From: Herminiimonas sp.
GTDB lineage: Bacteria; Pseudomonadota; Gammaproteobacteria; Burkholderiales; Burkholderiaceae_D
Length of the DNA: 64,000 nucleotides
Direction: 5' to 3'
NCBI GenBank assembly: GCA_028292665.1
Contig: JAQGLW010000074.1
Location: 314 to 64,313, forward strand
Shown: piece after piece, positions 11,007 to 64,000 of the stretch
How the letters are laid out: each line of letters starts with the position of its first letter
How positions within the stretch are numbered: position 1 is the stretch's first letter
The notes under the pieces: generated by a model
What the model saw: the letters and a program-made list of their open reading frames with translations, nothing else
What the model was told of the DNA's origin: nothing
The model's database searches: none
Translations under genes and position numbers: made by a program

Positions 11007-11031
11007 AGGCCTTTTATGTCAGGTGATTCTG

Positions 11032-11382
11032 CTATTTTTGCGCCGCGGTCACGATCATTTCGACCAGCCACTCGGGGTTGACGAGCTGCGCCTGAACGGT
11101 AGCGCGCGGCGGAGAATGGCCGTCGGCGACCCATTCGTTCCAGACCGCATTCATGCCGGCAAAATCCTTCACATCCGAAATAAAAATCTGGCACATCAAA
11201 ATGCGGGTCTTGTCGCTGTTCGCTTCAGCCAGCAGGCGATCGATATGGCCCAGAACTTCGCGGGTTTGCCCGTCGATGTTTTGAGTCGCATCTTCGGCAA
11301 TCTGTCCGGCAAGATAGATCGTGCCATTATGAACGGCTATTTCCGAAAGTGTTTTACCAACGTGCAAACGCTTGATATCCAT
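11032..11382 (-). CDS. RidA/YjgF-family protein
   Basis: 116 aa. The size and the C-terminal ...PPRATVQAQLVNPEWLVEMIVTA pattern fit the RidA family. Confidence 0.8.
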   Translation of the reverse strand: MDIKRLHVGKTLSEIAVHNGTIYLAGQIAEDATQNIDGQTREVLGHIDRLLAEANSDKTRILMCQIFISDVKDFAGMNAVWNEWVADGHSPPRATVQAQLVNPEWLVEMIVTAAQK

Positions 11383-11415
11383 GATGTTCCGGCGACGAGA
11401 AATTAAAAATCAGTT

Positions 11416-12282: not shown

Positions 12283-12389
12283 TTTGTATGCAGTAAACTA
12301 GTCGATAGATTCGACATTTTACTGTCCGTTACGCTTAAAATCCTGTTAACTTCATCGCCATTCACAAATTCTTGCGCACAAAGGACATC

Positions 12390-13184
12390 ATGCAAAGTAC
12401 TACGCTCAAAGGAAAGACTGCACTGATTACCGGTTCCACCTCGGGCATTGGGCTTGGAATAGCGAAGGCGCTCGCGGCACAAGGCGCTCATATTGTGTTC
12501 AACGGTTTTGGCGATGCCCGGGAAATTGCAAGGCTGCAGGCCGATGTTGCACGGGAATACGATGTCAAGACGATTTATCACAATGCGGACATGTCGAAAC
12601 CGGCCGAGATCGAAGCGATGATGCGCGCCGCTGCCGACCATCTGGGCGGAGTCGATATCCTGGTCAACAATGCCGGCATTCAGCATGTCGCCAACGTAGA
12701 AGACTTTCCTGTCGAGAAGTGGGATGCGATCATCGCGATCAATCTGACCTCGGCATTTCACACTACACGCCTTGCCTTGCCGCAAATGAAAACCAGAAAC
12801 TGGGGACGCATCATCAATATCGCATCAGCCCATGGATTGGTGGGCTCTGCGCAAAAATCAGCTTACGTTGCGGCCAAGCACGGCATCGTCGGCTTTACCA
12901 AAGTCACCGCATTGGAAACTGCGCAATCCGGCATTACCTGCAATGCGATCTGTCCCGGGTGGGTCTTGACGCCGCTGGTGCAGAAACAGGTCGATGCGCG
13001 CGCCGCCCAAGGCGGAATTTCGAATGAAGAGGCAAAAAAAGGCCTGCTTGCGGAGAAACAACCGTCGGGCGAATTCGTCACACCGGAACAATTGGGTGCG
13101 CTTGCTGTCTTTCTTTGCAGCGCTGCCGCGAACCAGGTACGCGGCGCCGCATGGAATATGGATGGGGGCTGGGTGGCTCAATGA
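12390..13184 (+). CDS. bdhA: D-3-hydroxybutyrate dehydrogenase (SDR)
   Basis: MQSTTLKGKTALITGSTSGIGLGIA...YVAAKHG...GGWVAQ. ATG at 12390 is preceded by AAGGA. The track ORF starts at a TTG (12372). Confidence 0.88.
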   Translation: MQSTTLKGKTALITGSTSGIGLGIAKALAAQGAHIVFNGFGDAREIARLQADVAREYDVKTIYHNADMSKPAEIEAMMRAAADHLGGVDILVNNAGIQHVANVEDFPVEKWDAIIAINLTSAFHTTRLALPQMKTRNWGRIINIASAHGLVGSAQKSAYVAAKHGIVGFTKVTALETAQSGITCNAICPGWVLTPLVQKQVDARAAQGGISNEEAKKGLLAEKQPSGEFVTPEQLGALAVFLCSAAANQVRGAAWNMDGGWVAQ

Positions 13185-13258
13185 CAATCCGAATCATCTG
13201 CTCCGATCCTTTTATATCCGATCAAGCCATCGTTGCCGTGATCAATCGGAAAGAGCGG

Positions 13259-14707
13259 ATGAATCAGTCGCGTAAAAGGCGTTCCAGCCCGGCGCATCCA
13301 AAAGCCGGTCTCCGCATCGGCCGGCTGGCCTTCATCGCCGCGATGGGCATGGCTGCATTCATTCAGCCCTGGAGCGAATGTGGCGCAAGCGCTTCGGCAA
13401 CGACCGTCGCAGCCGCCGGCATCGCATCTTCTGCATCGTCATCCGAACCGTCCGGCAATTCCTTGCCCGTTGCAAGCCGCAGTGTTCGTGTCGCCGTTCC
13501 GGACGGCATGAATACCAGCCCTTTCGATGTGCCTCGCATGCTCGCCGTGCCTCAGGGATTTGCAATTGCGGTATTCGCGCGAGTGGACAATGCGCGCTTC
13601 ATGGCTGTCGCACCGAACGGCGATTTGATGGTATCGAATCCCGAGGCCGGCAAAGTGATTCTGCTGCGCGCAAACGGCAAGGCTGCGCCTCGGCAGTTTG
13701 ACTTTGCATCAGGCTTGCAAAGACCGCATGACATCGTATTCCATACGTCAGGAAAAGCCACCTACATTTATATCGCTGAATCAAACCGCATCATCCGTGC
13801 GCCGTACACCCCGGGCCAAACCGGCATCGGCGCCGTGCAAACAGTGGTCGCCAACCTGCCCGATGCATCGAGCAAGGAGCTCAAGGGCCATTATGGCCAT
13901 CAGTTGAAGAACATCGCGCTCAACGGCAACAAGCTCTATGTATCGATTGCGTCAACCTGCAACGCGTGCGAATCGGATACGGTCTCGGACCCGATCCGCA
14001 GTGCGATCTACGAATACGATGCCGACGGAAAAAACCGGCGCCTGTATGCGCAGGGTTTGCGCAATGCCGAAGGAATCAGGTTCAAGCCCGGCACCAACGA
14101 ACTATGGGCCGTCGTCAATAGCCGGGACAATATCGCCTATCCATATCATAAGGACTGGAATGGCGACGGCAGCGACGATTTCGGTAAAGTGATGCAAAGC
14201 TATGTCGACGGTCATCCGCCGGATCTGCTGGTCAAGGTGAAAGACGGCGGTCGCTACGGCTGGCCGTTTTGCAATTCCAATCCGGATGCAGGGCTCGACA
14301 ACATGCCGTACGACCGCGATGCGCAACTGAATCCGGACGGCAGCATGCTTGATTGCGACAAGATCGATCGCGTCGCAAAAGGCATCCCGGCACATTCTGC
14401 GGCGCTCGGAATGAGCTTTCTGCAGAACTCGGGCTTTCCTGAAATGTATCGCAACGCGCTGGTCACTGCGCTGCACGGTTGCTGGAATTGCAGCTCGTTG
14501 AACGGCCACAAAATCGCGCTCTATCCCTTCAAGGCGGATGGCGGCGTAGGCGATGAAGTCGACCTGGTGACAGGCTGGGTCACCGATGCCAAGGCGAAAA
14601 AGCGCTGGGGCCGCCCGGTCGATGCGGTGCCGGACGGCAAAGGAGGACTATATATTTCGGATGACGATTCGGGGACGATTTATTTGCTTGCAAGTCCCTC
14701 TAAATAA
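13259..14707 (+). CDS. secreted PQQ-dependent sugar/sorbosone dehydrogenase-like beta-propeller protein
   Basis: Signal-like N-terminus MNQSRKRRSS...LAFIAAMGMAAF. Motifs RPHDIVF, NAEGIRFKPGTNELWAVVNSRD, GWPFCN and GRPVDAVPDGKGGLYISDD are present. The start is uncertain (13115, 13181 or 13259). Confidence 0.7.
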   Translation: MNQSRKRRSSPAHPKAGLRIGRLAFIAAMGMAAFIQPWSECGASASATTVAAAGIASSASSSEPSGNSLPVASRSVRVAVPDGMNTSPFDVPRMLAVPQGFAIAVFARVDNARFMAVAPNGDLMVSNPEAGKVILLRANGKAAPRQFDFASGLQRPHDIVFHTSGKATYIYIAESNRIIRAPYTPGQTGIGAVQTVVANLPDASSKELKGHYGHQLKNIALNGNKLYVSIASTCNACESDTVSDPIRSAIYEYDADGKNRRLYAQGLRNAEGIRFKPGTNELWAVVNSRDNIAYPYHKDWNGDGSDDFGKVMQSYVDGHPPDLLVKVKDGGRYGWPFCNSNPDAGLDNMPYDRDAQLNPDGSMLDCDKIDRVAKGIPAHSAALGMSFLQNSGFPEMYRNALVTALHGCWNCSSLNGHKIALYPFKADGGVGDEVDLVTGWVTDAKAKKRWGRPVDAVPDGKGGLYISDDDSGTIYLLASPSK

Positions 14708-14711
14708 AAAC

Positions 14712-14737
14712 CGATGCCGATTTCGCAGCATCGTTTT
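14712..14737. terminator. hairpin terminator between convergent genes
   Basis: CGATGC-cgatttcgca-GCATCG followed by TTTTT, with AAAAA upstream. It lies between the dehydrogenase (+) and scoB (-). Confidence 0.5.
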
Positions 14738-14755
14738 TCGTGAACGATGAATGGA

Positions 14756-15409
14756 TCAGTGAATCGCGCTTGTATCGAGTTCCGCGCCGGTCTTTTCGAT
14801 CACTTCCTGTTGCGTTACGCCGGGGGCCAATTCAACCAGCTTCAAACCGGACTCGGCGACATCGATCACACCGAGGTCGGTGATGATCCGATTGACGACG
14901 CCGACGCCGGTAAGCGGCAAATCGCATTTCTTTAAAATCTTGTGCGAGGTCGAACCATCCTTGGCTTTGGCGACGTGCTCCATCAATACCACGACACGCT
15001 TTACGCCGGCAACCAGATCCATTGCGCCGCCCATTCCCTTGACCATCTTGCCGGGAATCATCCAGTTGGCAAGATCGCCGTTTTCGGATACCTGCATGGC
15101 GCCGAGAATCGCGATGTTGATCTTCCCGCCGCGAATCATCGCAAATGAATCGGCCGAGCTGAAATAGGACGCTCCGGGCAAAGCCGTCACCGTCTGCTTG
15201 CCGGCATTGATGAGGTCAGGGTCGATTTCTTCTTCGGTCGGAAACGGGCCGATGCCCAGCAAGCCGTTTTCCGATTGGAGCCAGACTTCAATATCTCCGG
15301 GTACATAATTGGCGACCATCGTCGGCAGGCCGATACCCAGGTTCACATAGAAACCGTCCTGCAATTCTTTTGCCGCACGCGCGGCCATTTCTTCACGAGT
15401 CCATGCCAT
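14756..15409 (-). CDS. scoB: 3-oxoacid CoA-transferase subunit B
   Basis: 217 aa, [30 protein letters not shown]...SENGLLG is canonical for the B subunit. Confidence 0.93.
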
Positions 15410-15423
15410 GTCAATTCTCCGCT

Positions 15424-16122
15424 CTACTTTGCTCGAATGGTGCGTTGTTCGATCCGTTTTTCCGGTGTCGCATTAAGTACGATGCGGTGCACGAAAATAC
15501 TGGGAGTATGCACATCGTCCGGATCGATTTCGCCGACTTCGACCAGCTTCTCGACTTCGACAACGGTAATTTTTCCGGCCATCGCGACATTCGGGTTGAA
15601 GTTGCGCGCAGTCTTGCGGTACACCAGGTTCCCGGCCTTGTCGGCCATGTACGCCTTGACCAGCGCTATGTCTGCAACCAGCGAGCGTTCCATTACGTAT
15701 TCCTCGCCGTCGAATTCGCGGACCTCCTTGCCCTCGGCGACGATGGTGCCGACACCCGTTTTCGTGAAGAACGCGGGAATGCCTGCGCCGCCGGCCCGCA
15801 GTTTTTCCGCGAGCGTACCTTGCGGCGTGAATTCCAGCTGGAGCTCGCCCGCCAGATATTGGCGTTCGAATTCCTTGTTCTCACCGACATACGATGCAAT
15901 CATTTTCTTGATCTGGCGCGTCGTCAGCAATTGTCCAAGGCCGAAACCGTCGACACCGGCATTATTCGAAATCGCGGTCAGATTCTGCACTCCCGAATCG
16001 CGCAAGGCTGCAATCAGCGCTTCCGGAATACCGCATAAGCCAAAGCCGCCGACGGCGATCGTCTGCCCATCCTTGACAATACCGGACAGGGCAGCGGCGG
16101 CATCAGGATAAACTTTCTTCAT
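15424..16122 (-). CDS. scoA: 3-oxoacid CoA-transferase subunit A
   Basis: The internal ATG gives [34 protein letters not shown]... (232 aa). The longer track ORF (to 16215) adds a non-conserved extension. Confidence 0.93.
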
Positions 16123-16263
16123 ACCAACCCTTTTCTTTATGTAGAGTAGACCCGACCATGGATACGGCTTTTGTTTACCATACCTGCCAGCATATGATGC
16201 TGCATTGGACAACACAATACCGTAGAAGTACCAATTTTAATTCATAAAAAGGCGTGCCACTTC

Positions 16264-52473: not shown

Positions 52474-53043
52474 ATGGCAACTGATAAAGAACTTTCCGAC
52501 TTCCTTGAGAATGTGGAACGCCGCGCATTTAAACAAGCTGTGTATGCAGTGCGCAAAGACGAGGCTGCGTTCGATATTGTCCAGGATGCAATGATCAAGC
52601 TGGCTGAAAAGTATGGCGATAAGCCTGCGGCTGAGCTGCCTTTGCTATTTCAGCGTATATTGCAAAATACGATTCACGACTATTTTCGCCGTGAAAAAGT
52701 GCGCAATACCTGGGTCAGCCTTTTTTCCAGCATTGGCGGCAATTCAGAAGACCACGAGGATTTCGACATACTGGAAACCTACGAGGCTGAAGAAGGGACA
52801 CAAGCCGCTGAATCCAGTGAAGACAAGGTCGCACGAGACCAGATTCTGGCGGCGATTGACGAAGAAGTACAAAGGCTCCCGACGCGTCAACGCGAAGCCT
52901 TTCTCATGCGTTATTGGCAGGATATGGATGTTGCTGAAACGGCTGCAGCAATGGGATGTTCCGAGGGAAGTGTCAAAACTCATTGCTCTCGTGCAACACA
53001 TACCTTAGCCCAAGCCTTAAGAGCCAAAGGAATACGCTTATGA
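52474..53043 (+). CDS. ECF-type RNA polymerase sigma factor
   Basis: 189 aa with region 2 (..AFDIVQDAMIKL...) and region 4 (LPTRQREAFLMRYWQDMDVAETAAAMGCSEGSVKTHCSRA). Confidence 0.9.
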   Translation: MATDKELSDFLENVERRAFKQAVYAVRKDEAAFDIVQDAMIKLAEKYGDKPAAELPLLFQRILQNTIHDYFRREKVRNTWVSLFSSIGGNSEDHEDFDILETYEAEEGTQAAESSEDKVARDQILAAIDEEVQRLPTRQREAFLMRYWQDMDVAETAAAMGCSEGSVKTHCSRATHTLAQALRAKGIRL

Positions 53044-53444
53044 ATCCTAAAGAACTTGATTTCGCTTACAAAGTGCGGCATGCACTTAATGAAAACCTTG
53101 ACTATCTCCCGTCTTCTACTGCTGAAAGACTGGCTTCTGCGCGCAATTTAGCCTTATCTCGCAAGAAAAAAGATTCTCCTCTACGCGCATATGTCCCGCA
53201 ATATAAATTGGCAGGTCAAGTTGGCAGTTTTTTCAGTGAACCCTTGTCTTGGTTGAGCCGGGTAAGTCTGGCAGTACCTGTTGTTGTTTTAGCTCTTGGA
53301 TTAACCGGTATTTATCAATTCGAAAAACAGCAGCGCATTACCGAAATCGCTGAGATAGATGCGCTTGTTTTAGCTGATGAATTACCTCTGTCCGCCTATG
53401 CGGATCATGGCTTTAATGCTTACCTCGCCAAGCGAGGGGAGTAA
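53040..53444 (+). CDS. DUF3619-like single-pass membrane protein (candidate anti-sigma factor)
   Basis: Its ATG overlaps the sigma-gene stop (ATGA). 134 aa with one TM helix (LAVPVVVLALGLTGIY). The family name is from memory. Confidence 0.7.
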   Translation: MNPKELDFAYKVRHALNENLDYLPSSTAERLASARNLALSRKKKDSPLRAYVPQYKLAGQVGSFFSEPLSWLSRVSLAVPVVVLALGLTGIYQFEKQQRITEIAEIDALVLADELPLSAYADHGFNAYLAKRGE

Positions 53445-53445
53445 A

Positions 53446-54153
53446 ATGACGAGCGTTTCATCGAGTACAGTCGCCCGCTTCGTGCGGGCGGCACGCATTT
53501 TAGCTGTCCTGATCGGGGTTAGCTCGATTGCTCACGGGGCCACTGAAACGGCGTACGGTACCAATGCAACTGATGGGACGCCGGCTCTTAAAACCAAACC
53601 TGCCGCCACATCATCAACCAACACGGGCAAAGGCGCGGCAAAATCAGCACCAAGTCAATTGGCAAAACCGTTGTGGGCTGAACTGACTCCCGCTCAACAA
53701 CAAGCACTTGCGCCACTGGCAGTTGAATGGGACAAGCTTGATGCACAACACAAGAAAAAATGGCTGACGATCGGTAATCGATATGGATCTCTTAAACCCG
53801 ATCAGCAGATCCGCCTGCAGAACCGGATGCGTGATTGGACCAAGCTTACGCCGGAACAACGGCGTGTAGCACGCGAAAGTTATTCGCGAGCCAAAAAATT
53901 GAATCCAGTCCAAAAAAGCGCTGAGTGGCAGCAATATCAGCAATTGCCTGAAGAACAGAAAAAGAAACTTGCAGCAGAAGCCGCTGCTAAAAAACCAGTA
54001 GCCAATCTTCCCCCTGCTTATCAAAGCAAAGCCAAAGTAACGCCGCCGCCTAAATCGGCACTGAAAGCCCATTCCGGCTCGAATCAAACTGTTATTCCAC
54101 CGGCAACGGAGACATCCGCAGCTCAGCCTGTCACGCAACCTGCCGTTAAATAA
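53446..54153 (+). CDS. DUF3106-like secreted repeat protein
   Basis: GAGGGGA precedes the ATG. It has a signal peptide and three W-x2-LTP/LP-E/Q-Q helical repeats (WAELTPAQQQAL, WTKLTPEQRRVA, WQQYQQLPEEQKKKL). The family name is from memory. Confidence 0.7.
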   Translation: MTSVSSSTVARFVRAARILAVLIGVSSIAHGATETAYGTNATDGTPALKTKPAATSSTNTGKGAAKSAPSQLAKPLWAELTPAQQQALAPLAVEWDKLDAQHKKKWLTIGNRYGSLKPDQQIRLQNRMRDWTKLTPEQRRVARESYSRAKKLNPVQKSAEWQQYQQLPEEQKKKLAAEAAAKKPVANLPPAYQSKAKVTPPPKSALKAHSGSNQTVIPPATETSAAQPVTQPAVK

Positions 54154-54672
54154 TTGCTGCCGTTGAACATCATAGCAACTCCTTCTTTGAAAAGCCGCCT
54201 TGCCAGCATGGTGTATGAAGGCATGCTGCTGTTCGGCGTTCTTTTCATCGCTGTCTGGCTGTTTTCAACATTATTGCAGCAACGTCATGCACTCTATCTT
54301 CGCAATGCATTACAGGAATGGCTGTTTGTGGTGCTCGGCGTTTATTTTGCATGGTTCTGGAGCCATGGCGGACAAACGCTGGCCATGAAAACCTGGCATA
54401 TTCGTTTAGTAAAGGCAAATGGGCAACCGCTAACGTTTTGGCGTGCCGCTTTTCGATACTTGCTGGCTTGGCTTTGGTTTTTACCCGGCTTGGCGTTAGC
54501 GTGGGCATTAGGCGCAAAAGCCTGGATGCTGGTGGCGATTCCGGCTGCAAACGTAGCGCTATGGGCATTTGCCGTTTATCTTGATCCGCATCGCCAGTTT
54601 CTGCATGACCGATTAGCGGGCACGCGCCTGGTCGCGACTGCTGATAAATTGCCGAGAACAACCTCGACCTGA
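54154..54672 (+). CDS. RDD-family membrane protein
   Basis: 172 aa with 3-4 TM helices and the C-terminal ...HRQFLHDRLAGTRLV typical of RDD proteins. The start is uncertain (TTG 54154 or ATG 54208). Confidence 0.75.
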   Translation: MLPLNIIATPSLKSRLASMVYEGMLLFGVLFIAVWLFSTLLQQRHALYLRNALQEWLFVVLGVYFAWFWSHGGQTLAMKTWHIRLVKANGQPLTFWRAAFRYLLAWLWFLPGLALAWALGAKAWMLVAIPAANVALWAFAVYLDPHRQFLHDRLAGTRLVATADKLPRTTST

Positions 54673-55065
54673 TTGTCGTCGTACATTTGCATACTCCTGT
54701 CTGTTACAGAGATGACAGGGCCGGATCAATCGACTCTTGAAGTACCTCTGAGATCTTGATCGGCAAATGCAATTGTATTTGCCTGTCAATCCGCCATATT
54801 TCAAATTGCAGCAACTTTATCCTCTGCATTAAACATTCCTCAATCGCAATATTAAGCGTTGCACAGCGGCAAAAACTTCGTCAGAATGACATTCAGAATT
54901 AGCGCCGATATTTGTCAAGCGGACCGATCGAGAGCTGGCGCTTTTATAGACGAAAGCTGTTTCATTGACGATATTCAGTGAGAAGCCCGTGCGATCGAGC
55001 AGTGCTTGTGCGGTAACCGGAAAGCGGCGATCGCCTCGATGGATACGGATTTCATCGCAATATGC

Positions 55066-57363
55066 ATGACGCCGCGCAGCCATGATCCGAAGCGTGAAAT
55101 AAAAAAAGAAAGATCGTCGAACGCAATCGAGGAGAAACCGCTCTTGAAACAATATGCGATTCGCTATGCGTCGGGCCTGCTGCTTCTGTTCGGGTTGCTT
55201 GGCCACGTAAGCGGCGTATACAACTTATCCTTCATTGATTCTCTTGACAGGGTTATATACGACGCCAAATTACGATTGACCATGCCGCAAACAGTCGACG
55301 ATCGTGTGGTCATCCTCGATATCGACGAGAAAAGTATTGCCGAAATAGGCCGCTGGCCCTGGAACCGCGACAAAATGGCAGCGCTGGTGAACAAACTGTT
55401 CGAGCGCTACCATATTCGGCTGCTCGGATTCGATGTTGTCCTGGCCGAGCCCGACGAAAGTTCCGGGCTGAAAATTCTGCAAGGATTGGGGCAGCACGAA
55501 CTCAAGCACAACCAGCAGTACCTGGCCGCAGTGAAGCAGATGAGTCCGCAACTCGACTACGACAAGCTGTTTGCCAAATCGCTGCAAGGCAGGCCGGTTA
55601 TTCTCGGTTATTACATGGCTCACGGACAGATCGGCAGCGGTGCGATACCACAGCCCGTGCTATCCGCCAGGGCCTTTCAGGGACGCAGTATCCCTTTCTC
55701 TACCTGGTCAAGCTATGGCGGCAATTTGCCTGAATTCCAGGCTGCCGCTTCAGGCGGAGGGCACTTCAGTCCGATCCCCGATGCCGATGGCAGCATACGG
55801 CGCGTACCCCTGCTGGCCAAGTACAAGGATGCCTATTACGAAGCCTTTTCTCTCGCCATGGTGCGGGCGCTGCTCGACAATCCTCCGATTGTTCCCGGAT
55901 TCGGTGAAGAAACCTCCGGCGGTGACTACGCAGCCGTGGAATGGCTTGAATTGCCGACTGCCCGCGGCACCATGCGAATACCTGTGGATGGAAACGTTAC
56001 CGCATTGGTGCCGTACCGCGGTTACGAAAAAAGCTATCCATATTATTCAATCGCCGATGTGCTGGCTGATCGTATCAAGCCTGAACAACTTCAAGGAAAA
56101 ATCGCTTTGGTCGGAACCACGACACCTGGCCTGCGAGACCAACGTACGACACCGGTCGGAGAAGTGTATTCAGGAGTCGAGGTGCATGCCAACCTGATCA
56201 GCGGCATGCTCGACGGCACCATCAAACTCAAACCGCAATATGTCAATGCTGTTGAACTGATGCTTCTGATCCTGACCGGCGCACTGATGATCTTCCTGTT
56301 CCCGTGGCGATCGCCATTGCGCGCAACTCTGTCAACCTTGCTGATTCTGACAGCCGCCGTCGGGATCAACCTTGCATTCTGGCAGTACGCCAACTGGGTG
56401 CTGCCGCTGGCGACAAGTCTGCTTTTGATAAGCAGCTTGTTCATATTCAATATGTCGTACGGCTATTTTGTCGAATCCAGATCGAAACGCCAGTTCACCG
56501 AATTGTTCGGTCAATACGTGCCGCCTGAACTGGTGGAAAAAATGAGCCTCAATCCTCAGAGCTATAGCATGGCAGGCCGCAAGGCAGCGCTTACGGTGCT
56601 ATTCTCCGATGTGCGCGGCTTTACTACCATTTCGGAGGGAATGGAACCCGATCAGCTGGCGCAACTGATGAACGAATATCTCAGCGCCATGACTGTGGTG
56701 GTGCGCAAGCACCGGGGCACGCTTGACAAATATATAGGCGATGCAATCATGGCGTTCTGGGGCGCTCCTGTAGATGACCCTGAGCACGCCCGCCATGCCA
56801 TCGTCACTGCACTCGAAATGCAGCAGGCATTGCGTGATCTGAACCGGACGCTGGTCGCCAGAGGCTCACCGGCAATGGAAATCGGTATAGGGATCAATAC
56901 CGGAACGATGACTGTCGGCGACATGGGATCGGTGGTGCGCAAGGCTTATACCGTGATGGGCGATGCCGTCAATCTCGGCTCGCGCCTGGAAAGCATTACG
57001 AAGCAGTATGGCGTTGGTATCATCGTCGGCGCAACGACTCGCAATGAGGCAACCGACATGTTATTTCGTGAGATCGATCTGGTCCAGGTCAAGGGCAAAG
57101 AGGAACCTGTGGCAATTTACGAACCGCTGGGCTTTGAAGGAGAACTTTCAGAAGAAATGCTCGATGAACTGGAGCGATGGCATCAGGCATTGCATGATTA
57201 TCGGATGCGGAAGTGGAATGCGGCAGATGCGGCACTGGCGGACCTTGCACAATTGCGGCCCGATTCCAGGCTCTATGCACTCTACAGGGAGAGGATTGCG
57301 GCTTTTCAGGTGACCCCGCCAGACCCGGAGTGGATCGGAGTAACCAGGTTCGATACAAAATAG
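55066..57363 (+). CDS. CHASE2-sensor class III adenylate/guanylate cyclase (predicted adenylate cyclase)
   Basis: One N-terminal TM, a periplasmic CHASE2-like region of about 330 aa, then 3 TM. The cyclase core reads LTVLFSDVRGFT...LDKYIGDAIMAFWGAP...AYTVMGDAVNLGSRLE. The start is ambiguous (TTG 55006, ATG 55039, ATG 55066). Confidence 0.88.
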   Translation: MTPRSHDPKREIKKERSSNAIEEKPLLKQYAIRYASGLLLLFGLLGHVSGVYNLSFIDSLDRVIYDAKLRLTMPQTVDDRVVILDIDEKSIAEIGRWPWNRDKMAALVNKLFERYHIRLLGFDVVLAEPDESSGLKILQGLGQHELKHNQQYLAAVKQMSPQLDYDKLFAKSLQGRPVILGYYMAHGQIGSGAIPQPVLSARAFQGRSIPFSTWSSYGGNLPEFQAAASGGGHFSPIPDADGSIRRVPLLAKYKDAYYEAFSLAMVRALLDNPPIVPGFGEETSGGDYAAVEWLELPTARGTMRIPVDGNVTALVPYRGYEKSYPYYSIADVLADRIKPEQLQGKIALVGTTTPGLRDQRTTPVGEVYSGVEVHANLISGMLDGTIKLKPQYVNAVELMLLILTGALMIFLFPWRSPLRATLSTLLILTAAVGINLAFWQYANWVLPLATSLLLISSLFIFNMSYGYFVESRSKRQFTELFGQYVPPELVEKMSLNPQSYSMAGRKAALTVLFSDVRGFTTISEGMEPDQLAQLMNEYLSAMTVVVRKHRGTLDKYIGDAIMAFWGAPVDDPEHARHAIVTALEMQQALRDLNRTLVARGSPAMEIGIGINTGTMTVGDMGSVVRKAYTVMGDAVNLGSRLESITKQYGVGIIVGATTRNEATDMLFREIDLVQVKGKEEPVAIYEPLGFEGELSEEMLDELERWHQALHDYRMRKWNAADAALADLAQLRPDSRLYALYRERIAAFQVTPPDPEWIGVTRFDTK

Positions 57364-57375
57364 GCCAAATATAAA

Positions 57376-58143
57376 ATGAAATTAAGAGTTCTCGGCTGCA
57401 GCGGAGGAATCGGAGGACGGCACTTGCATACGACTTCGATGCTGGTCGATCATGACATCCTGATCGATGCCGGCACCGGGGTGGGCGATTTGAGTGTCGC
57501 GGAGCTTGTGCTGATCGATCATGTATTCATTACGCATTCGCATCTCGATCATATTGCCTGCCTGCCGTTCATCCTCGATACAGTGGGCGATATGCGCAGC
57601 AAACCGCTGACAATGTATGCGACGCAGGCGACACAGGAAATCATCAGGACCCATATTTTCAACTGGGCGATCTGGCCCGACTTCAGCGAAATTCCGGATG
57701 CGGAAAATCCTTACCTGCGTTTTCATACCATTCGCCTTGGAGAGAACGTATGTCTGAACGGGCGCAATATCACCGCTTTGCCTGCCATGCACACGGTTCC
57801 CGCAGTCGGATACCACCTCGATAGCGGTGCCGCAAGCCTGGTGTTTACAGGTGATACGACAGCCAACGACGAATTCTGGAATGAAGTGAACAAGATTGAC
57901 AATCTGCGTTATTTGATCATCGAGACCGCCTTTTCCAACAGTGAAAAGCAACTTGCGATCATTTCCAGACATCTGTGCCCCAGCATGCTCGGCGAAGAAC
58001 TTCAAAAGCTCCGGCACAATCCGGAAATATACATTACGCATTTGAAGCCTGGACAAATCGAAGTCACCATGCGGGAAATCGAGGAAGGCATCGGCCAGTA
58101 CAAGCCTCGCATGCTGCAGAATGACCAGGTATTCGAATTTTAA
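57376..58143 (+). CDS. MBL-fold hydrolase, class-II-like 3',5'-cyclic-nucleotide phosphodiesterase
   Basis: 255 aa, MKLRVLGCSGGIGG.... The THSHLDH motif (57532-57552) matches the HxHLDH signature of class II cAMP phosphodiesterases. It starts 12 nt after the cyclase stop. Confidence 0.72.
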   Translation: MKLRVLGCSGGIGGRHLHTTSMLVDHDILIDAGTGVGDLSVAELVLIDHVFITHSHLDHIACLPFILDTVGDMRSKPLTMYATQATQEIIRTHIFNWAIWPDFSEIPDAENPYLRFHTIRLGENVCLNGRNITALPAMHTVPAVGYHLDSGAASLVFTGDTTANDEFWNEVNKIDNLRYLIIETAFSNSEKQLAIISRHLCPSMLGEELQKLRHNPEIYITHLKPGQIEVTMREIEEGIGQYKPRMLQNDQVFEF

Positions 58144-58346
58144 AGTTCGCCGGACGATATCCGCCCGGCATCGATGAAAGAATCAGAAAATTCCCATGCA
58201 ATCCTCATCGATCGGACAGTTCGGCAATCCGGCACTGCTTGCACTGCTGCCGCCCCGGAGTATGCGAAAGAGCGCCGTTTTGCCATACGAGGCAATCACC
58301 CGTGACGCTGCGATCAGTGCAAACAAAGATGAATGGATGAGATGAC

Positions 58347-60716
58347 ATGAGTGCAGTTCTCGGAACACAGCAAATCAACGGCGACATCGGCGACGTCAAA
58401 AGCCGTCTGGAGTTTTCACAGAGGCTTCAGGCAGTCACCAACAAGATTCACGCGACCAGCAACATAGACGAGATCATGCTCGATCTGCCGCTGGATATAT
58501 GCAACCTGTTCGATTGCGATCGATTCACCCTGTATGCCGTCAGCGATGACAAAGCCTTCATCGTTTCAAAAATCAAAACCGGGCTCAAGGCATTCAACAA
58601 TCTGACGCTGCCTATCTCTGAAAAAAGCATTGCGGGACATGCCGCACTTTTCAAAAGAACTATCCGGCTAAGCGATGTGTACGATGAGGCAGAGCTGGAA
58701 TCCTATTCGCCGAAGCTGCAATTTCTGCAAGAGGTGGACAAGCAGACCGGTTATCGCACCAAGCAGATGCTGGTTGCCCCTTTGATCAACGTGCAGAGCA
58801 ACGAATTGCTAGGCGTTATACAGCTTATCAACAATCGTGCCGGCGGACCTTTTACAGCGATGGCCGAGGACGGCGTCAAGGAATTATGCGCTACCCTTGT
58901 AATTGCGTTCACGCAGAGGCTGCGCCCGCCTCCGCCGATTCGTTCGAAATACGATCCGCTGGTATCCGGCGCAATTCTGTCGGCGCCCGAGTTTGAACTT
59001 GCCACACGTTCGGCACGGCGCCAGGAAATCGACATCGAAGAAGTGCTGCTCAATGAATTCAATGTCAAATTGCCGTCTATCGGCCAGGCGCTCGGCACGT
59101 TCTTCGGCGTTCCCTACGAGCCTTACAAGGCCGAACGGATCAAGCCGATCGATCTTTTAAAAAATCTCAAGCGTGACTATGTAGAGCAGAATCGCTGGTT
59201 GCCGATCGAAGACGGCAAGGAAGGCCTGATTATCCTTGCGCTTGATCCCGAGCAGGTAAAAAGCGTGCGCGTCGTCAACAATATTTTTCCAAAAGCCAAA
59301 CTGGCCTATCGAGTTACGACGAATGCCGAGTTCAAGCAGACAGTCGATCAATTTTTCGGCATTGCGGACGATCCAACTTCCGTTGACGATCTCCTGTCGG
59401 GCATGGAGGACGGCGACGAAGAGAACGAAGTTTCCGCTACCGATATTTCTGCGGCCGCCGAGAATGAGCTCGTCAAACTGGTCAACAAGATCATTGTCGA
59501 CGCCCATCGTCAAGGCGCTTCCGACATTCATATCGAACCGCGGCCCGGGAAAGAAAAAACGCTGATCCGTTTTCGCAAGGATGGTTCGCTGGAACCCTAT
59601 ATCGAAATCCCGCCGAGCTATCGTAACGCCCTCCTGGCGCGTATCAAGATCATGTGCGATCTCGATATTTCGGAACGACGAAAGCCGCAGGATGGAAAAA
59701 TAAAATTCAAGAAATACGGTCCGCTCGACATTGAGTTGCGGGTTGCAACGATTCCGTCGGCCGGCGGCGTCGAAGACGTTGTAATGCGGATTCTCGCAGC
59801 CGGCGAGCCGATTCCGCTCGACAAGCTGGGTGTGCTGCCATACAACCTCGAGCGACTCAAGGAAACAGTCGAAAAACCCTACGGAATATTTTTTGTGTGC
59901 GGCCCGACCGGTTCCGGCAAAACCACGACGCTGCATTCGGTGCTCAGCTATCTCAACAAACCCGACACCAAGATATGGACAGCGGAAGATCCGGTGGAAA
60001 TCACCCAGAAAGGATTGCGCCAGGTTCAGGTGAACCGCAAGGCCGGGCTCGATTTCGCCACTGTCATGCGCGCATTTCTGCGGGCCGACCCGGACATTAT
60101 CATGGTCGGCGAAATGCGCGACAAGGAAACGGTTTCGATCGGCCTTGAAGCTTCCCTGACCGGCCATCTGGTTTTCGCCACCTTGCATACGAACAGTGCG
60201 CCGGAATCGATCGTTCGGCTTCTGGACATGGGCATGGACCCATTCAATTTTGCAGATGCATTGCTCGGCGTTTTGGCGCAGCGGCTGGCCAAACGCCTAT
60301 GCACAAAATGCAAAACGGCTTATCAGCCTTCGCCGGAAGAAATACAAGGCCTGCTGACCGAGTATTGCGAAGAACTAATGAATACCGAGGCTTTTATCAA
60401 AGACCCGCAAGCCGGGCGCAGCAAGGTGCTCGGCACATGGATGGAAAGATACGCCGACGACAATGGGAAATTCACTCTTTACCGCGCGGTCGGATGCGAA
60501 CAATGCAGCAAAGGCTACAAGGGCCGGGTCGGCTTGCATGAATTGATGGTCGGCTCCGACAAAGTCAAGCGATTGCTCCAGGAGCATGCTCGCGTAGCGC
60601 AACTGCTCGCGGCGGCACTGGAAGACGGCATGCTTACGCTCAAAATGGATGGTATTGAAAAGGTGCTCTCCGGCGCTACCGACATCAAGCAGGTGCGCCA
60701 GGTCTGCATCAAGTAA
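58347..60716 (+). CDS. GAF-domain fused GspE/PilB-family secretion ATPase
   Basis: 789 aa. The N-terminal GAF-like domain spans about aa 25-190 (..CDRFTLYAV...IAGHAA...LVAPLIN..LLGVIQLINN). A T2SSE_N-like domain follows. The ATPase core has Walker A GPTGSGKTT (59901-59927), an Asp box, Walker B IIMVGEMRD, a His box (TGHLVFATLHTN) and tetra-Cys CTKC...CEQC. Confidence 0.88.
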   Translation: MSAVLGTQQINGDIGDVKSRLEFSQRLQAVTNKIHATSNIDEIMLDLPLDICNLFDCDRFTLYAVSDDKAFIVSKIKTGLKAFNNLTLPISEKSIAGHAALFKRTIRLSDVYDEAELESYSPKLQFLQEVDKQTGYRTKQMLVAPLINVQSNELLGVIQLINNRAGGPFTAMAEDGVKELCATLVIAFTQRLRPPPPIRSKYDPLVSGAILSAPEFELATRSARRQEIDIEEVLLNEFNVKLPSIGQALGTFFGVPYEPYKAERIKPIDLLKNLKRDYVEQNRWLPIEDGKEGLIILALDPEQVKSVRVVNNIFPKAKLAYRVTTNAEFKQTVDQFFGIADDPTSVDDLLSGMEDGDEENEVSATDISAAAENELVKLVNKIIVDAHRQGASDIHIEPRPGKEKTLIRFRKDGSLEPYIEIPPSYRNALLARIKIMCDLDISERRKPQDGKIKFKKYGPLDIELRVATIPSAGGVEDVVMRILAAGEPIPLDKLGVLPYNLERLKETVEKPYGIFFVCGPTGSGKTTTLHSVLSYLNKPDTKIWTAEDPVEITQKGLRQVQVNRKAGLDFATVMRAFLRADPDIIMVGEMRDKETVSIGLEASLTGHLVFATLHTNSAPESIVRLLDMGMDPFNFADALLGVLAQRLAKRLCTKCKTAYQPSPEEIQGLLTEYCEELMNTEAFIKDPQAGRSKVLGTWMERYADDNGKFTLYRAVGCEQCSKGYKGRVGLHELMVGSDKVKRLLQEHARVAQLLAAALEDGMLTLKMDGIEKVLSGATDIKQVRQVCIK

Positions 60717-60727
60717 AGGAGGTCGTA

Positions 60728-62386
60728 GTGGGCACAGTAGATGATCTTTTGCGCCGTCTTGACCAGCTTAACGAGGTCGGCGCCGCGCTGTCGAACGAGC
60801 GCGACATCAAGCGCCTGCTGGAAAAAATCCTGATTGCAGCCCAAAAAATCACGCAGGCTGACGGCGGCACGCTTTACTCGATGACTGAAGACAAGTCCAG
60901 CCTGCAGTTCGAAATTCTCAGAAATACCAGCCTGGCAATCGCTCTTGGGGGAACCTCCGACAAGCCGATCCCGTTTGCAGCGCTGCCGCTGACAACGGAA
61001 GATGGATTGCCGAACACCTCGATGATCGCGGCGTATTGCGCAATTCATCGAAAAACGGTGAATATTCCGGATGCATACGAAGCAAAAGGCTTCGATTTTT
61101 CCGGAACACGCAGATTCGATGAAGGTATCGGTTATCGTTCGAAATCGTTTCTCACCGTACCGATGAAAAATCACGAGGACGAAATAATCGGCGTGCTGCA
61201 ACTGATCAATGCCATCGATGCAGATACGAATCAGGTGGTGCCGTTTTCAGCGGCAGCCCAGCGTCTGGCCGAGTCGCTCGCATCGCAAGCTGCGATTGCG
61301 CTTTCCAATCGCCAGTTGATCCTGCAGCAGGAAGCCTTGTTCGAATCGTTCATCGGCATGATCAACTTCGCCATTGACGACAAATCCCCCTATACCGGCG
61401 GACACTGCCAGCGTGTTCCTGCGCTTACGATGATGCTTGCCGAAGCGGTCGAGGAAACCACCGAGGGGCCGTTTGCGTCGTTCAGCATGACCGAGCAGGA
61501 TCGTTACGAATTGAAGATCGCCGGACTTCTGCATGACTGCGGCAAAATCACGACGCCGGTTCATGTCGTGGACAAGGAAACCAAGCTGCAAACCATTTTT
61601 GATCGCATCGATCTGGTGGATACGCGCTTTGAAGTACTGAAACGGGATGCTGAAATCGCGATGCTCGAAGCCAGGCTTGCATTGCGTGCCGCAGAAAATC
61701 CTGCCGCCGAAAAGGCTTTGGAATCCGGGTTCAGGCAACAGGTGGAACAGCTCGATAGCGAGCGCGAATTTCTGCGCCGGGCGAATATCGGCAGCGAGGC
61801 GATGCGGTCGGAAGACCAGCAGGCCGTACGCGATATCGGTGCAAGTCATCGATGGATCAATCCCCAAGGGGAAACGGTAAATTTTCTTACCGATAACGAA
61901 ACGGAAAATCTGGTCATACGTGCCGGCACGCTTACTCCGTCCGAACGTGAAATCATTAACAATCACATCGTCGTCACCATCAAGATGCTCGAAAGCCTGC
62001 CTTGGGTCAAGCATCTCAAACGCGTGCCGGAATATGCCGGCGGGCATCATGAACGGATGGATGGCAAAGGCTATCCACGCGGTCTTACGCGTGATCAGAT
62101 GTCGGTGCAGGCCCGGATCATGGGCATCGCCGACATCTTCGAGGCACTTACCGCAAAAGACCGCCCTTACAAACCCGGCAAAACGCTTTCCGAATCATTA
62201 AGCATCTTGGCCAAACTCAATCGCAACGGCCACATCGATCCCGATCTGTTCAATATTTTCGTGCGCAGCAAGGTCTATCTCAAATATGGATTGGAGTTTC
62301 TCGACCCTGAACAGATTGATGAAGTGGATGAATCCAAAGTCATTGAATTTGCCGCCGGGTCCGACAAACCGCATAACAATTCTTAA
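60728..62386 (+). CDS. GAF-domain fused HD-GYP phosphohydrolase
   Basis: GTG start 5 nt after AAGGAGG. 552 aa with an N-terminal GAF-like domain (..DGGTLYSM...FLTVPMKNHEDEIIGVLQLINA). HD is at 61532-61537 (LLHDCGK) and HHERMDGKGYPRGL at about 62045-62085, separated by an unusually long insert of about 170 aa. Confidence 0.88.
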   Translation: MGTVDDLLRRLDQLNEVGAALSNERDIKRLLEKILIAAQKITQADGGTLYSMTEDKSSLQFEILRNTSLAIALGGTSDKPIPFAALPLTTEDGLPNTSMIAAYCAIHRKTVNIPDAYEAKGFDFSGTRRFDEGIGYRSKSFLTVPMKNHEDEIIGVLQLINAIDADTNQVVPFSAAAQRLAESLASQAAIALSNRQLILQQEALFESFIGMINFAIDDKSPYTGGHCQRVPALTMMLAEAVEETTEGPFASFSMTEQDRYELKIAGLLHDCGKITTPVHVVDKETKLQTIFDRIDLVDTRFEVLKRDAEIAMLEARLALRAAENPAAEKALESGFRQQVEQLDSEREFLRRANIGSEAMRSEDQQAVRDIGASHRWINPQGETVNFLTDNETENLVIRAGTLTPSEREIINNHIVVTIKMLESLPWVKHLKRVPEYAGGHHERMDGKGYPRGLTRDQMSVQARIMGIADIFEALTAKDRPYKPGKTLSESLSILAKLNRNGHIDPDLFNIFVRSKVYLKYGLEFLDPEQIDEVDESKVIEFAAGSDKPHNNS

Positions 62387-62692
62387 AGCTTCAGTACAAA
62401 CGGCAGCGCTCTGCCCGCATAAACATTCGCGCAACAGCATCGTCCGTCCAACGATCGCCGCCGCGAATGCAGGGGACTCGCGTTGCAGCTTTTGCTGTTT
62501 TCCACCAAGATGCATGGATTCCATGCACGGCAGCCTATGATGCTGCAACAGTTTCCATATCGTCATGCCCTGCTTGCACTATTGCGCCGACCTTGGCGAT
62601 GACTACGGCAATGGCACAGTACAATACGGAATGATGGACGTCTTCCACAAGTGTTATCACGGCATATCGAATTTATCCGTACACGGCATTTC

Positions 62693-63661
62693 ATGGTAAC
62701 CCGCATCACACGCATACTTATTTTTTTTCAGATCGCCGTCGCGATCGCACTGTGCGCGCTCATGATCAAGGCAGGCCACATCGACAGTTCGATGCTGGCT
62801 GTGGGTTTGAGTATCGGGCTTGTTTTGCTGATGCGCCTTTTGATTACCGCCAATAATTTTTTCATTGCGTGGCTGTATCGCAGCGAAACGCCGAATTTGC
62901 TCCATCTCAACTATCGTCAGGCCTGCCGGTTATTCATAGACGAATTTTATGCATCAATGTCAAGTTCTTCCTGGACGATGGCTTTTCATTCATTCACCAA
63001 ACGTCCGGCGGAAGATCCAATCGGATTGCCGGTTCTGCTTATTCATGGTTATGGCTGCAACAGCGGCTACTGGCATGCAATGAGCAGGAGATTGAAACGG
63101 GAGCGCATCACCCACTACGCTGTTGACCTGGAGCCGGTATTGGCCGGCATCGATGACTATGTGCCCGCGGTAAATGACACTGTGGAAACGCTATGCAGGG
63201 AAACCGGCCATGACAAAGTCATCATCGTCGCCCACAGCATGGGTGGTTTGGTGGCACGCGCTTATCTGCGCGACTACGGCAATGCACGTATCGCCAAAGT
63301 AATTACGCTCGGGACGCCGCATCGCGGGACAGGTCTGGCGAATTTCGGCGCAGGCCCGAATTCAAAGCAGATGCGTTGGAAAGGGAAAGCAGGAAACGGC
63401 GTGCCAAGCGAATGGTTGCGCAAACTGGAAGCTGCTGAAGACAATGCTGTCCGGGCATTATTCGTATCGATTTATTCGCATCATGACAATATCGTTTCGC
63501 CGCAAATTTCATCTCGCTTCGCCGGCGCTGCAAATATCGAATTTCATGGTGTCGGGCATGTTGCGTTGGCATTCAACCCAGCCATTCAGACGCGTGTAGT
63601 TGAAGAAATTCAAAATACGCCGCAAAAAATATCTGCCGTGTCTGAAGAAAAATTTGCCTGA
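62693..63661 (+). CDS. membrane-anchored alpha/beta hydrolase (lipase-like)
   Basis: ATG at 62693 gives MVTRITRILIFFQIAVAIALCAL... (2 TM). Then PVLLIHGYGCNSGYW, the nucleophile elbow AHSMGG, and GTPHRGT. Confidence 0.78.
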   Translation: MVTRITRILIFFQIAVAIALCALMIKAGHIDSSMLAVGLSIGLVLLMRLLITANNFFIAWLYRSETPNLLHLNYRQACRLFIDEFYASMSSSSWTMAFHSFTKRPAEDPIGLPVLLIHGYGCNSGYWHAMSRRLKRERITHYAVDLEPVLAGIDDYVPAVNDTVETLCRETGHDKVIIVAHSMGGLVARAYLRDYGNARIAKVITLGTPHRGTGLANFGAGPNSKQMRWKGKAGNGVPSEWLRKLEAAEDNAVRALFVSIYSHHDNIVSPQISSRFAGAANIEFHGVGHVALAFNPAIQTRVVEEIQNTPQKISAVSEEKFA

Positions 63662-63898
63662 TACATTGATCAATCCGGATGGTGGATGTAATTCAATCGC
63701 TCTCCATACTCATTTTTGCGACAGCAATTCATGAAAAAAAGTATATATGGCAACCGGTTTACTTGAACTTTTTTTATTAAATGACAACTCAATAGCTATA
63801 ACCCGATTTTTGCAATCGCGTTAGTTAGCGCGACACGCATGCCTGTCAATTTGACGGTTAATTGCCGTTATTTTTGCCATCATACCAAGGAAACTGCC

Positions 63899-64000
63899 AT
63901 GAAAAATCACTATCGGAAGGTCGCAGCCATCATTGCGCTGTCCTTTGGAATCGCGCCTGTTTTTGCGGCGGATATCGTTGATACTGCAACAGCAGCCGGA
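63899..64000 (+). CDS. fasciclin-domain protein (5' fragment, truncated by the window end)
   Basis: AAGGA lies 7 nt upstream of the ATG. MKNHYRKVAAIIALSFGIAPVFA|ADIVDTATAAG has a signal peptide plus the typical fasciclin N-terminus. Only 34 codons are visible. Confidence 0.5.
   Translation, partial: MKNHYRKVAAIIALSFGIAPVFAADIVDTATAAG

Follow-up and report, generated by a model that had tools for sequence, protein, structure and literature searches.

A four-gene locus of Herminiimonas sp. combining a CHASE2 cyclase, an MBL-fold phosphodiesterase and two GAF-fused enzymes, one of them a PilB/GspE-type ATPase, as a candidate cAMP signalling module

Gene content of the locus and conserved active-site residues

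A 64,000-nucleotide (nt) stretch of contig JAQGLW010000074.1 from Herminiimonas sp., a metagenome-assembled genome of the Oxalobacteraceae (hereafter the window, meaning the whole stretch that was analysed) carries four same-strand genes that encode a CHASE2 receptor cyclase, a metallo-beta-lactamase (MBL)-fold phosphodiesterase, a PilB/GspE-type ATPase with an N-terminal GAF domain and a GAF-HD-GYP phosphodiesterase. Their domain content, active-site residues and conserved linkage suggest a signalling module built on cyclic AMP (cAMP). An initial annotation, made from the nucleotide letters without database searches, had proposed these domains, and profile-HMM searches verified all of them (CHASE2, cyclase, PDE/MBL, GAF, T2SSE_N, T2SSE and HD-GYP). 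The features of the locus, with the evidence for each, are as follows.

54673..55143, + strand: upstream non-coding region, presumed to bear the promoter, between the RDD stop codon and the probable start of gene 1
55144..57363, + strand: gene 1, predicted CHASE2 receptor adenylate cyclase of the class IIIb type (Pfam, orthologue alignment, ribosome-binding site); CHASE2 at about 55210-56283, cyclase domain at about 56578-57105
57376..58143, + strand: gene 2, predicted MBL-fold class-II-like cyclic-nucleotide phosphodiesterase (Pfam, PDB match, HxHxDH)
58144..58346, + strand: spacer of 203 nt between genes 2 and 3 (no conservation in close relatives, no Rfam match)
58347..60716, + strand: gene 3, GAF-fused PilB/GspE-type ATPase (Pfam, PDB matches, AlphaFold model with Foldseek); GAF at about 58419-58922, helical linker and T2SSE_N-like N1 domain at about 58944-59366, ATPase at about 59460-60695
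60728..62386, + strand: gene 4, GAF-HD-GYP phosphodiesterase (Pfam, PDB matches, HD and HHERMDGxGYP); GAF at about 60797-61309, HD-GYP at about 61340-62272
54154-54672 and 62651-63661: flanking genes, encoding an RDD protein and an alpha/beta hydrolase (Pfam)

The open reading frames (ORFs) confirmed the four same-strand genes and their spacers of 12, 203 and 11 nt, and Pfam identified the products of the two flanking genes as an RDD protein and an alpha/beta hydrolase. The longest possible ORF of gene 1, which the initial annotation had adopted, spans 55006-57363. The orthologues of gene 1 begin at the point corresponding to TTG 55144, and a GAGGAG Shine-Dalgarno sequence lies 9 nt upstream of this codon; because of these two observations, gene 1 most likely comprises 55144-57363 (739 amino acids). 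The preceding non-coding stretch would then measure about 470 nt, not the roughly 390 nt first reported, and its description as AT-richer holds modestly (GC 0.46 for 54673-55065 against 0.53 for the cluster). Neither this region nor the 203-nt spacer matched Rfam, the only Rfam matches of the window being two tRNAs, both outside the cluster, and alignment of the spacer with two close relatives revealed no conserved element. Its position is occupied in 13-17 relatives by a gene for a cNMP_binding-rhodanese protein.

Gene 1 matched CHASE2 (PF05226) with 191.9 bits against a cut-off of 26.3 (E = 1.9e-56) and Guanylate_cyc with 82 bits (E = 6.7e-23), and its translation has hydrophobic segments on both sides of CHASE2. 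The cyclase motifs FSD, IGD, DKYIGD, AYTVMGD, VN and SRLE align to those of CyaB (3R5G) and CyaC (1WC0), and in these PDB alignments the substrate-specifying positions of gene 1 hold the same Lys (LDKYIGD) and Thr (AYTVMGDAVN) as both structures; in the guanylate cyclase Cya2 (2W01) these positions are occupied by Glu and Gly. Class IIIb adenylate cyclases are reportedly defined, following Linder and Schultz, by this Lys/Thr pair, with Thr replacing Asp. The full class IIIb set, consisting of two metal-binding Asp residues, Lys and Thr, and the transition-state Asn and Arg, is present in gene 1 and kept in all 39 orthologues. Since the Lys/Thr pair marks class IIIb adenylate cyclases, cAMP is the likely product, in line with the earlier proposal of a cyclase making a cyclic mononucleotide.

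Gene 2 matched Lactamase_B_2 (E = 4e-17) and, in part, PDEase_II (PF02112; E = 1.4e-12), the latter with 47.9 bits, which is above the cut-off and covers only profile positions 84-144 of 340. Its best PDB match was the yeast class II phosphodiesterase PDE1 (4OJV, E = 1.3e-05), and HxHxDH, present as HSHLDH, was kept in 53 of 53 orthologues. Because its score with the NCBIfam model cyc_nuc_deg_phdiest (36 bits) is far below the equivalog cut-off of 400, we label gene 2 a predicted class-II-like phosphodiesterase and not a member of that family. Its orthologues also carry precomputed matches to PF23023, the Anti-Pycsar Apyc1 family. Together with matches of the gene 1 cyclase domain to the PADLOC models of PycC (best E = 2.3e-29), this raises the alternative of a Pycsar-kind anti-phage system with an Apyc1-like phosphodiesterase alongside. 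The PycC matches, however, reflect the homology shared by class III cyclases, and the other three proteins gave no meaningful PADLOC match, with no transmembrane or TIR effector among the matches. The cluster lies in a conserved chromosomal context among housekeeping genes, with no match in the plasmid collection, and neither an extracytoplasmic CHASE2 sensor nor the Lys/Thr purine specificity fits such a system. We therefore regard an anti-phage role as highly improbable.

The C-terminal part of gene 3 is an ATPase of the GspE/PilB superfamily (T2SSE, 381 bits, E = 5.5e-114). Walker A (GPTGSGKT), Walker B (DPDIIMVGEMRD) and the His box (TGHLVFATLHTN) were kept in 68 of 68 orthologues, while AEDPVEI and the four cysteines of the CxxC...CxxC Zn site were at least 90% conserved in an alignment of 20 sequences. 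The motif set of the superfamily (Walker A, Asp box, Walker B, His box and tetracysteine Zn site) is present in full, which upholds the description of gene 3 as a complete GspE/PilB-type ATPase. The best PDB matches of this part were PilB (M. xanthus, Geobacter) and PilF, ahead of GspE/EpsE.

At the N terminus of gene 3, a weak match to GAF_3 was the only GAF match in Pfam, and the domain was confirmed by PF01590 matches in orthologues, PDB sequence matches and a structure model. Its best PDB match was CyaB2 (1YKD, solved with cAMP; E = 2.4e-21), and all 18 PDB sequence matches were GAF domains of enzymes regulated by cyclic nucleoside monophosphates (cNMP; CyaB2, PDE5, PDE2, PDE10, PDE6 and Lcd1) or of PmGH. 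An AlphaFold (AF2) model of residues 1-370 had a mean pLDDT of 76, with the GAF domain at about 65-87 by 10-residue block and for the most part at 70-87. Foldseek searches with this model returned PmGH, PDE5A, CyaB2 and PDE2A at the top, then cAMP-bound Lcd1 and PDE10A, with generic GAF domains (PtsP, phytochromes) interspersed from rank 10. D131, T138, N162 and F169 were invariant in a diverse 14-sequence alignment of the family, and among the close, betaproteobacterial orthologues the whole TGYRT segment of the pocket region (D..TGYRT) was invariant. The NKFDE signature (N-K-x(n)-F-x3-D-E) is retained in the consensus of distant GAF-T2SSE members. The GAF domains of genes 3 and 4 are related to each other (25% identity, E = 4e-13). 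The placement of both in the cyclic-mononucleotide-binding group of GAF domains is supported by sequence and, for gene 3, also by fold, and the initial view of these N termini as GAF domains of the cAMP/cGMP type agrees with their nearest neighbours among solved structures.

Between the GAF domain and the motor, the model of gene 3 shows a helix (residues 171-192), a low-confidence hinge (193-198), further helices (203-253) and an alpha/beta subdomain (268-337). The Pfam match to MshEN/T2SSE_N (PF05157; E = 6.8e-07) spans the alpha/beta subdomain only. The tandem 24-residue MshEN motif, RLGxx(L/V/I)(L/V/I)xxG(L/V/I)(L/V/I)xxxxLxxxLxxQ, was absent from gene 3, from its 68 orthologues and from the 14 diverse members; the equivalent positions of the family read K[TS]KYDxLVx[DE]AVLS... 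and xDIEEVLxxEFxV.... The best alignment of the helical region, to the third GSPII repeat of PilF, was weak (E = 0.39). The MshE protein of a related genome, Janthinobacterium sp. 17J80-10, retains RLGELLV...RKLGRVFIENGF. Because the tandem RLG motif is missing, the gene 3 ATPase is predicted not to bind cyclic di-GMP (c-di-GMP) in the manner of MshE. Gene 3 would thus be a motor whose c-di-GMP-binding N terminus has been swapped for a GAF domain of the cAMP type.

Gene 4 matched HD_5 with 148 bits (E = 2.5e-43), GAF (E = 6.7e-13) and HD. Its best PDB matches were PmGH (4MCW), itself a GAF-HD-GYP protein, and V-cGAP3 (5Z7C), while its GAF domain matched PDE5, CyaB2 and PDE2. LLHDCGK and GGHHERMDGKGYP, which contain the HD dyad and HHERMDGxGYP, were kept in all 48 orthologues. 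With the catalytic motifs of HD-GYP proteins all in place, gene 4 is a predicted phosphodiesterase of c-di-GMP, the substrate named in the initial annotation, or of cGAMP. An insertion of about 100 amino acids in the HD-GYP domain (window 61589-61906, gene 4 residues 288-393) has no counterpart in PmGH and resembles the GAF-associated HD-GYP insertion described for Leptospira LIC_11189. In its GAF domain, the D of the NKFDE-like segment, an Asp in 46 of 48 orthologues, is Ala in the window copy, which also has Ile where 30 of 48 have Thr (the xGYRS segment).

Conservation and gene order in relatives

A scan for related loci with a 4-sequence alignment as the query found at least 505 relatives in species-representative genomes, and the best 80, nearly all labelled Betaproteobacteria, were mapped. 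With the N-terminal half of the ATPase, 206 relatives were found at E < 1e-30 among 50%-identity clusters. The four window proteins were mapped onto the loci by tblastn and flanking ORFs were clustered de novo; the following synteny counts refer to 50 species-level loci flanked by 6 kb or more of sequence at either end. The GAF-ATPase is adjoined by the GAF-HD-GYP gene in 49 of the 50, by the CHASE2 cyclase in 44 and by the MBL phosphodiesterase in 39; another 9 have a divergent MBL gene at that place. Two gene orders occur. Type A has the order of the window, with cyclase, phosphodiesterase, GAF-ATPase and GAF-HD-GYP on one strand, and is found in Rhodocyclales, Gallionellaceae, Nitrosomonadales and Sterolibacteriaceae. 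In type B, the order of most Oxalobacteraceae, one strand carries the genes for the cyclase, the HD-GYP protein and the phosphodiesterase, and the GAF-ATPase is transcribed divergently. The initial annotation had raised the question whether the four genes co-occur elsewhere as a unit; they do, in dozens of species, and because of this synteny chance adjacency is excluded. Such retention of the four genes despite a rearranged order argues strongly for a functional link between them.

Most loci of type A extend beyond the gene set of the window. Their 5' part encodes a CHASE2-Ser/Thr kinase, PP2C and an FHA protein, followed by the cyclase, the phosphodiesterase and sometimes the cNMP_binding-rhodanese protein; their 3' part encodes the GAF-ATPase, the GAF-HD-GYP protein, a type IVa pilin, a TPR protein and glycosyltransferases. 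The pilin gene directly follows the GAF-ATPase/GAF-HD-GYP pair on the same strand in 27 species of several families, including Rhodocyclales and Gallionellaceae, and its product has PF00114 and N_methyl matches, with GFTLIELMI in all 29 copies. Judged from these loci, the ancestral or extended form of the module includes a type IVa pilin.

Beside the module of type B lie genes for a FecR-domain protein, TPS and ShlB. By analogy with NsrA of Sinorhizobium meliloti, these may provide an outer-membrane input to the CHASE2 cyclase. The TPS proteins are filamentous-haemagglutinin-like and 1200-2150 amino acids long, and the transporter is of the ShlB/POTRA kind (loci L001-L003, L005, L008, L012 and L020-L034). 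Relatives also carry further cNMP readers, namely the cNMP_binding-rhodanese protein, a fusion of a Ser/Thr kinase with cNMP_binding and a small cNMP_binding protein. In two Gallionella loci (L045:16305-17930 and L037:17806-19131) a Ser/Thr kinase fused to a CAP-type cNMP_binding domain, a putative cyclic-nucleotide reader, lies a few kb downstream of the module.

Variants of gene 3 were also observed. In three Massilia-like or related metagenome-assembled genomes (L019:8288-10072, L026:13370-15157 and L032:12928-14712), a second ATPase of about 594 amino acids without a GAF domain lies 0.6-1 kb downstream of the GAF-ATPase, and its identity of about 70% to gene 3 indicates a recent tandem duplication. 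Undibacterium (L082:9893-11296, and L083) has a 467-amino-acid protein with GAF and T2SSE_N/MshEN and without the ATPase domain, whose gene adjoins a ShlB-type gene and one for a CHASE2 protein; a sensor half like that of gene 3 can therefore occur independently.

Close relatives share the ilv, ECF-sigma and RDD context of the window, and one of them (L086) has all four genes. Directly upstream of the cluster, a conserved same-strand string (52474-54672) encodes an ECF sigma factor, a probable DUF3619 protein (inferred from relatives), a DUF3106 protein and the RDD protein; the same string occurs in L086 and in another close relative, L085. The window copies of the cyclase, phosphodiesterase and HD-GYP protein are nearer to type A copies from Rhodocyclales/Gallionellaceae (50-73%) than to those of other Oxalobacteraceae (41-60%), while the window ATPase is equally close or closer to Oxalobacteraceae copies (75%), a pattern suggesting that the module has two old versions or was exchanged between lineages. 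The rest of the window is of housekeeping character (pheST, thrS, infC, spoT, the nuo operon, tpiA, pnp, leuA and ilvBHC). Gene calling is ambiguous at 11000-16200, where the longest plus-strand ORFs are overlapped by alternative minus-strand ORFs; these plus-strand ORFs, including one of 530 amino acids (13115-14707), gave no Pfam family beyond a weak GSDH match.

The GAF-ATPase and the neighbouring MSHA cluster

The initial annotation had called gene 3 an orphan and reported no pilus or secretion genes in the 64 kb. Within these limits both statements hold: Pfam found no platform, secretin or prepilin peptidase family among 35 of the larger ORFs of the window outside the cluster, and the prepilin N-terminal motif occurred nowhere in the 64 kb. 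Beyond the window end the picture changes. Through the MshL protein we recovered the continuation of the window's contig, a Logan contig that overlaps window 62832-64000 with two mismatches. The region past the window end (about 64.0-71.5 kb in window coordinates; L087:1-9441) carries a fasciclin gene and a LOG gene, followed on the opposite strand by genes for a pyridoxal phosphate (PLP) enzyme, MshN (about 66.9-68.1 kb), MshM and the secretin MshL (about 69.0-70.7 kb) and by three small genes. An MSHA-type pilus cluster thus begins about 4.5 kb downstream of the module on the same contig, a distance also given as about 4.5 kb past the window end. The close relative L085 likewise has a secretin cluster of the MSHA type a few kb downstream. 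With this cluster on the contig and the pilin gene that follows the ATPase in 27 species, gene 3 is an orphan only in the narrow sense of the window.

Such proximity raises the alternative that gene 3 encodes an ATPase displaced from a pilus or secretion cluster elsewhere, for instance this MSHA cluster, which would be incomplete without it. MshL, MshM and MshN lie close by on the contig, and neither mshE nor mshG follows mshN on the window's contig, a gap that recurs in Janthinobacterium sp. 17J80-10 (L088) and in L089. In Janthinobacterium sp. 17J80-10, however, the first genes of the MSHA cluster encode an MshE of its own (567 amino acids, with canonical RLG motifs), MshG (T2SSF) and MshF, and gene 3 is only 35% identical to that MshE. 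Moreover, a distance of 2.6 Mb separates the module from the MSHA cluster in Noviherbaspirillum ST 5-3. After comparison of three genomes we rejected gene 3 as a displaced MshE, given that the MSHA cluster of a relative has its own MshE, MshG and MshF, and we rate a displaced ATPase of any such cluster as very unlikely. A pilus cluster without an ATPase of its own, which according to the initial annotation would make gene 3 simply a displaced GspE/PilB, is not what Janthinobacterium sp. 17J80-10 has, as far as MSHA is concerned. Because its MSHA cluster holds MshE and MshG, the GAF-ATPase is, as judged by sequence for MSHA in this relative, an extra paralogue and not a displaced part. Immediately after mshN, the same genome encodes a 379-amino-acid HD-GYP protein and a FimV_N protein (L088:16592-17731).

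A model of cAMP signalling and its relation to known systems

The reading we favour, with slightly more belief than doubt, is a self-contained module of cAMP signalling, in which the four genes supply one writer, one eraser, two fused readers and a pilus-type motor. The CHASE2 receptor would sense an extracytoplasmic cue, upon which the class IIIb cyclase domain would make cAMP, and the MBL-fold phosphodiesterase would reset the signal. The two paralogous GAF domains of the cAMP type would read it. Binding to the GAF domain of gene 3 may control the activity of the ATPase or its docking to a platform of the type IV pilus type, the presumed cognate machine, by a route through the conserved helix/hinge linker and the N1 domain. 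As for the inferred direction of regulation in gene 4, cAMP on its GAF domain would switch on c-di-GMP hydrolysis by HD-GYP, as for Tlr0485. The net logic would be that an outside cue brings about filament assembly and a drop in c-di-GMP together. A more specific version, which we put forward tentatively and with more reservation, is that the cAMP-bound GAF domain directly gates a PilB-family motor in place of c-di-GMP and MshEN while the same cue drains c-di-GMP, giving a post-translational switch to surface motility conserved across Betaproteobacteria.

Several observations weigh against this reading, and they bear on its parts differently. Co-transcription of the four genes is presumed; promoter and terminator scans gave the same match counts as in shuffled sequence and therefore carry no information on the operon. 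As to the ligand, the NKFDE signature is degenerate and only partly kept in the betaproteobacterial copies, as NN...F...AE in gene 3 (N for K, and A-E for D-E) and as NA...F...AQ in gene 4, whose orthologues have N-A...F...[D]-Q. In addition, the close relative L085 (8198-9795; ATPase 80% identical) has counterparts of genes 2, 3 and 4 and no CHASE2 cyclase at the site, so that both GAF effectors occur there without it. PmGH, the closest full-length structural match, has a GAF domain without a known ligand, and many loci encode the separate cNMP_binding proteins. These points agree with an alternative in which the GAF domains sense cGMP, another nucleotide or a non-nucleotide, and the cyclase and phosphodiesterase act through other receptors such as the CAP-type cNMP-binding proteins. 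On the other hand, the nearest solved GAF domains by sequence and the top structural neighbours are cNMP-regulated, the pocket-region D..TGYRT is invariant among betaproteobacterial orthologues, both GAF effectors remain linked to cyclase and phosphodiesterase across the rearranged gene order, and Tlr0485 is a cAMP-activated precedent. We judge another ligand rather unlikely, and cAMP remains the ligand that we propose for both domains.

The assignment of the motor to a pilus is the other part at issue. A pilin neighbour occurs neither in the window nor in any type B (Oxalobacteraceae) locus, and in none of the loci examined does a gene for a platform protein (PilC/GspF), a secretin or a peptidase lie beside the GAF-ATPase. 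Gene 3 scored 470.9 bits with the PilB equivalog TIGR02538, below its cut-off of 675.65, yet this was its best NCBIfam model, and 439.4 bits with the GspE equivalog TIGR02533, below its cut-off of 630.25; because it falls below both, we assign the ATPase on sequence grounds to a distinct subfamily. Finally, a distant member of the family in Nitrospirota is a lone gene, for which reason the four-gene unit appears to be betaproteobacterial. The cAMP module might accordingly exist as described while its ATPase serves a machine like the type II secretion system (T2SS) or another one, or acts as a regulatory NTPase, the adjacency of pilA being incidental. Against this stand the same-strand pilin gene that follows in 27 species of several families, the PilB-type proteins among the best PDB and NCBIfam matches, and the conservation of every motif of an active assembly ATPase, including the Zn-site cysteines. 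A non-pilus role is an alternative we take seriously while considering it improbable, and a type IV pilus-type machine remains our preferred partner for the GAF-ATPase.

To our knowledge, second-messenger control of pilus and secretion ATPases has so far been known for c-di-GMP (MshEN, PilZ, FimX), and the only cAMP control of type IV pili that we know of is transcriptional (Vfr, CRP). In Pseudomonas aeruginosa, cAMP from a class IIIb cyclase governs type IV pilus biogenesis transcriptionally through the CRP-family protein Vfr. The present module would likewise link cAMP from a class IIIb-type cyclase to type IV pilus function; in contrast to Vfr, the presumed receptor domain is fused to the ATPase itself, which implies post-translational control. 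Gene 3 resembles the MshE/PilB ATPases in belonging to the GspE/PilB family, in its N-terminal T2SSE_N and in carrying a putative second-messenger receptor N-terminal to the motor. It differs from MshE in lacking the tandem RLG motif and in its added GAF domain of the cAMP type, as well as in its low identity to the MshE of the relative. In Vibrio cholerae, MshE is regulated by c-di-GMP through MshEN (Wang et al. 2016, PMC5013675).

The other components have precedents as well. Gene 1, with CHASE2 fused to a class III cyclase, resembles CyaD1, CyaD2 and CyaK of S. meliloti, which are CHASE2 adenylate cyclases (PMC13001267), and shares its Lys/Thr substrate pair with CyaB of P. aeruginosa (3R5G) and CyaC of Spirulina (1WC0). 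While the output in S. meliloti is the transcription factor Clr, the outputs linked here are two GAF-fused enzymes, and type B relatives carry FecR, TPS and ShlB beside the cyclase. Tlr0485 of Thermosynechococcus vulcanus is a cAMP-activated GAF-HD-GYP c-di-GMP phosphodiesterase, according to the passages of PMC8846402 and bioRxiv 10.1101/2021.11.05.467447 that cite Enomoto et al. 2020. Gene 4 shares with Tlr0485 and PmGH (4MCW) the GAF-HD-GYP architecture and intact HD and HHExxDGxGYP motifs; unlike them, it has the insertion of about 100 amino acids and is constantly linked to genes for a cyclase, a phosphodiesterase and a GAF-ATPase, and its own dependence on cAMP is putative. Cross-talk from cAMP to c-di-GMP is also described, in the part of PMC8846402 that deals with them, for Lcd1 of Leptospira (cAMP-GAF-GGDEF, PDB 5W10) and Bd1971 of Bdellovibrio (cNMP_binding-EAL). 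Both have a fused cNMP sensor, as do genes 3 and 4, and the cAMP-bound GAF domain of Lcd1 is a structural neighbour of that of gene 3; their output domains differ, and neither has a link in that account to an ATPase of pili or secretion. The literature searched yielded no paper on a GAF-fused PilB/GspE ATPase, and its incomplete coverage makes this absence of evidence only. The initial remark that no system of this architecture had been characterised thus stands, within that literature, for the GAF-ATPase, while Tlr0485 and CHASE2 adenylate cyclases have been published.

The module therefore belongs with the known second-messenger-gated ATPases and with cAMP to c-di-GMP cross-talk and is not a categorically new system, and its sequences suggest a direct control of a pilus motor by cAMP that is not yet characterised. 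If the model is correct, the module would add direct cAMP gating of a PilB-family motor and would provide an example of cross-talk from cAMP to c-di-GMP that is compact and amenable to genetics. It would do so for a large family that includes environmentally important groups, such as the iron oxidisers Gallionella and Sideroxydans, Accumulibacter, Propionivibrio and Dechloromonas, and culturable Oxalobacteraceae.

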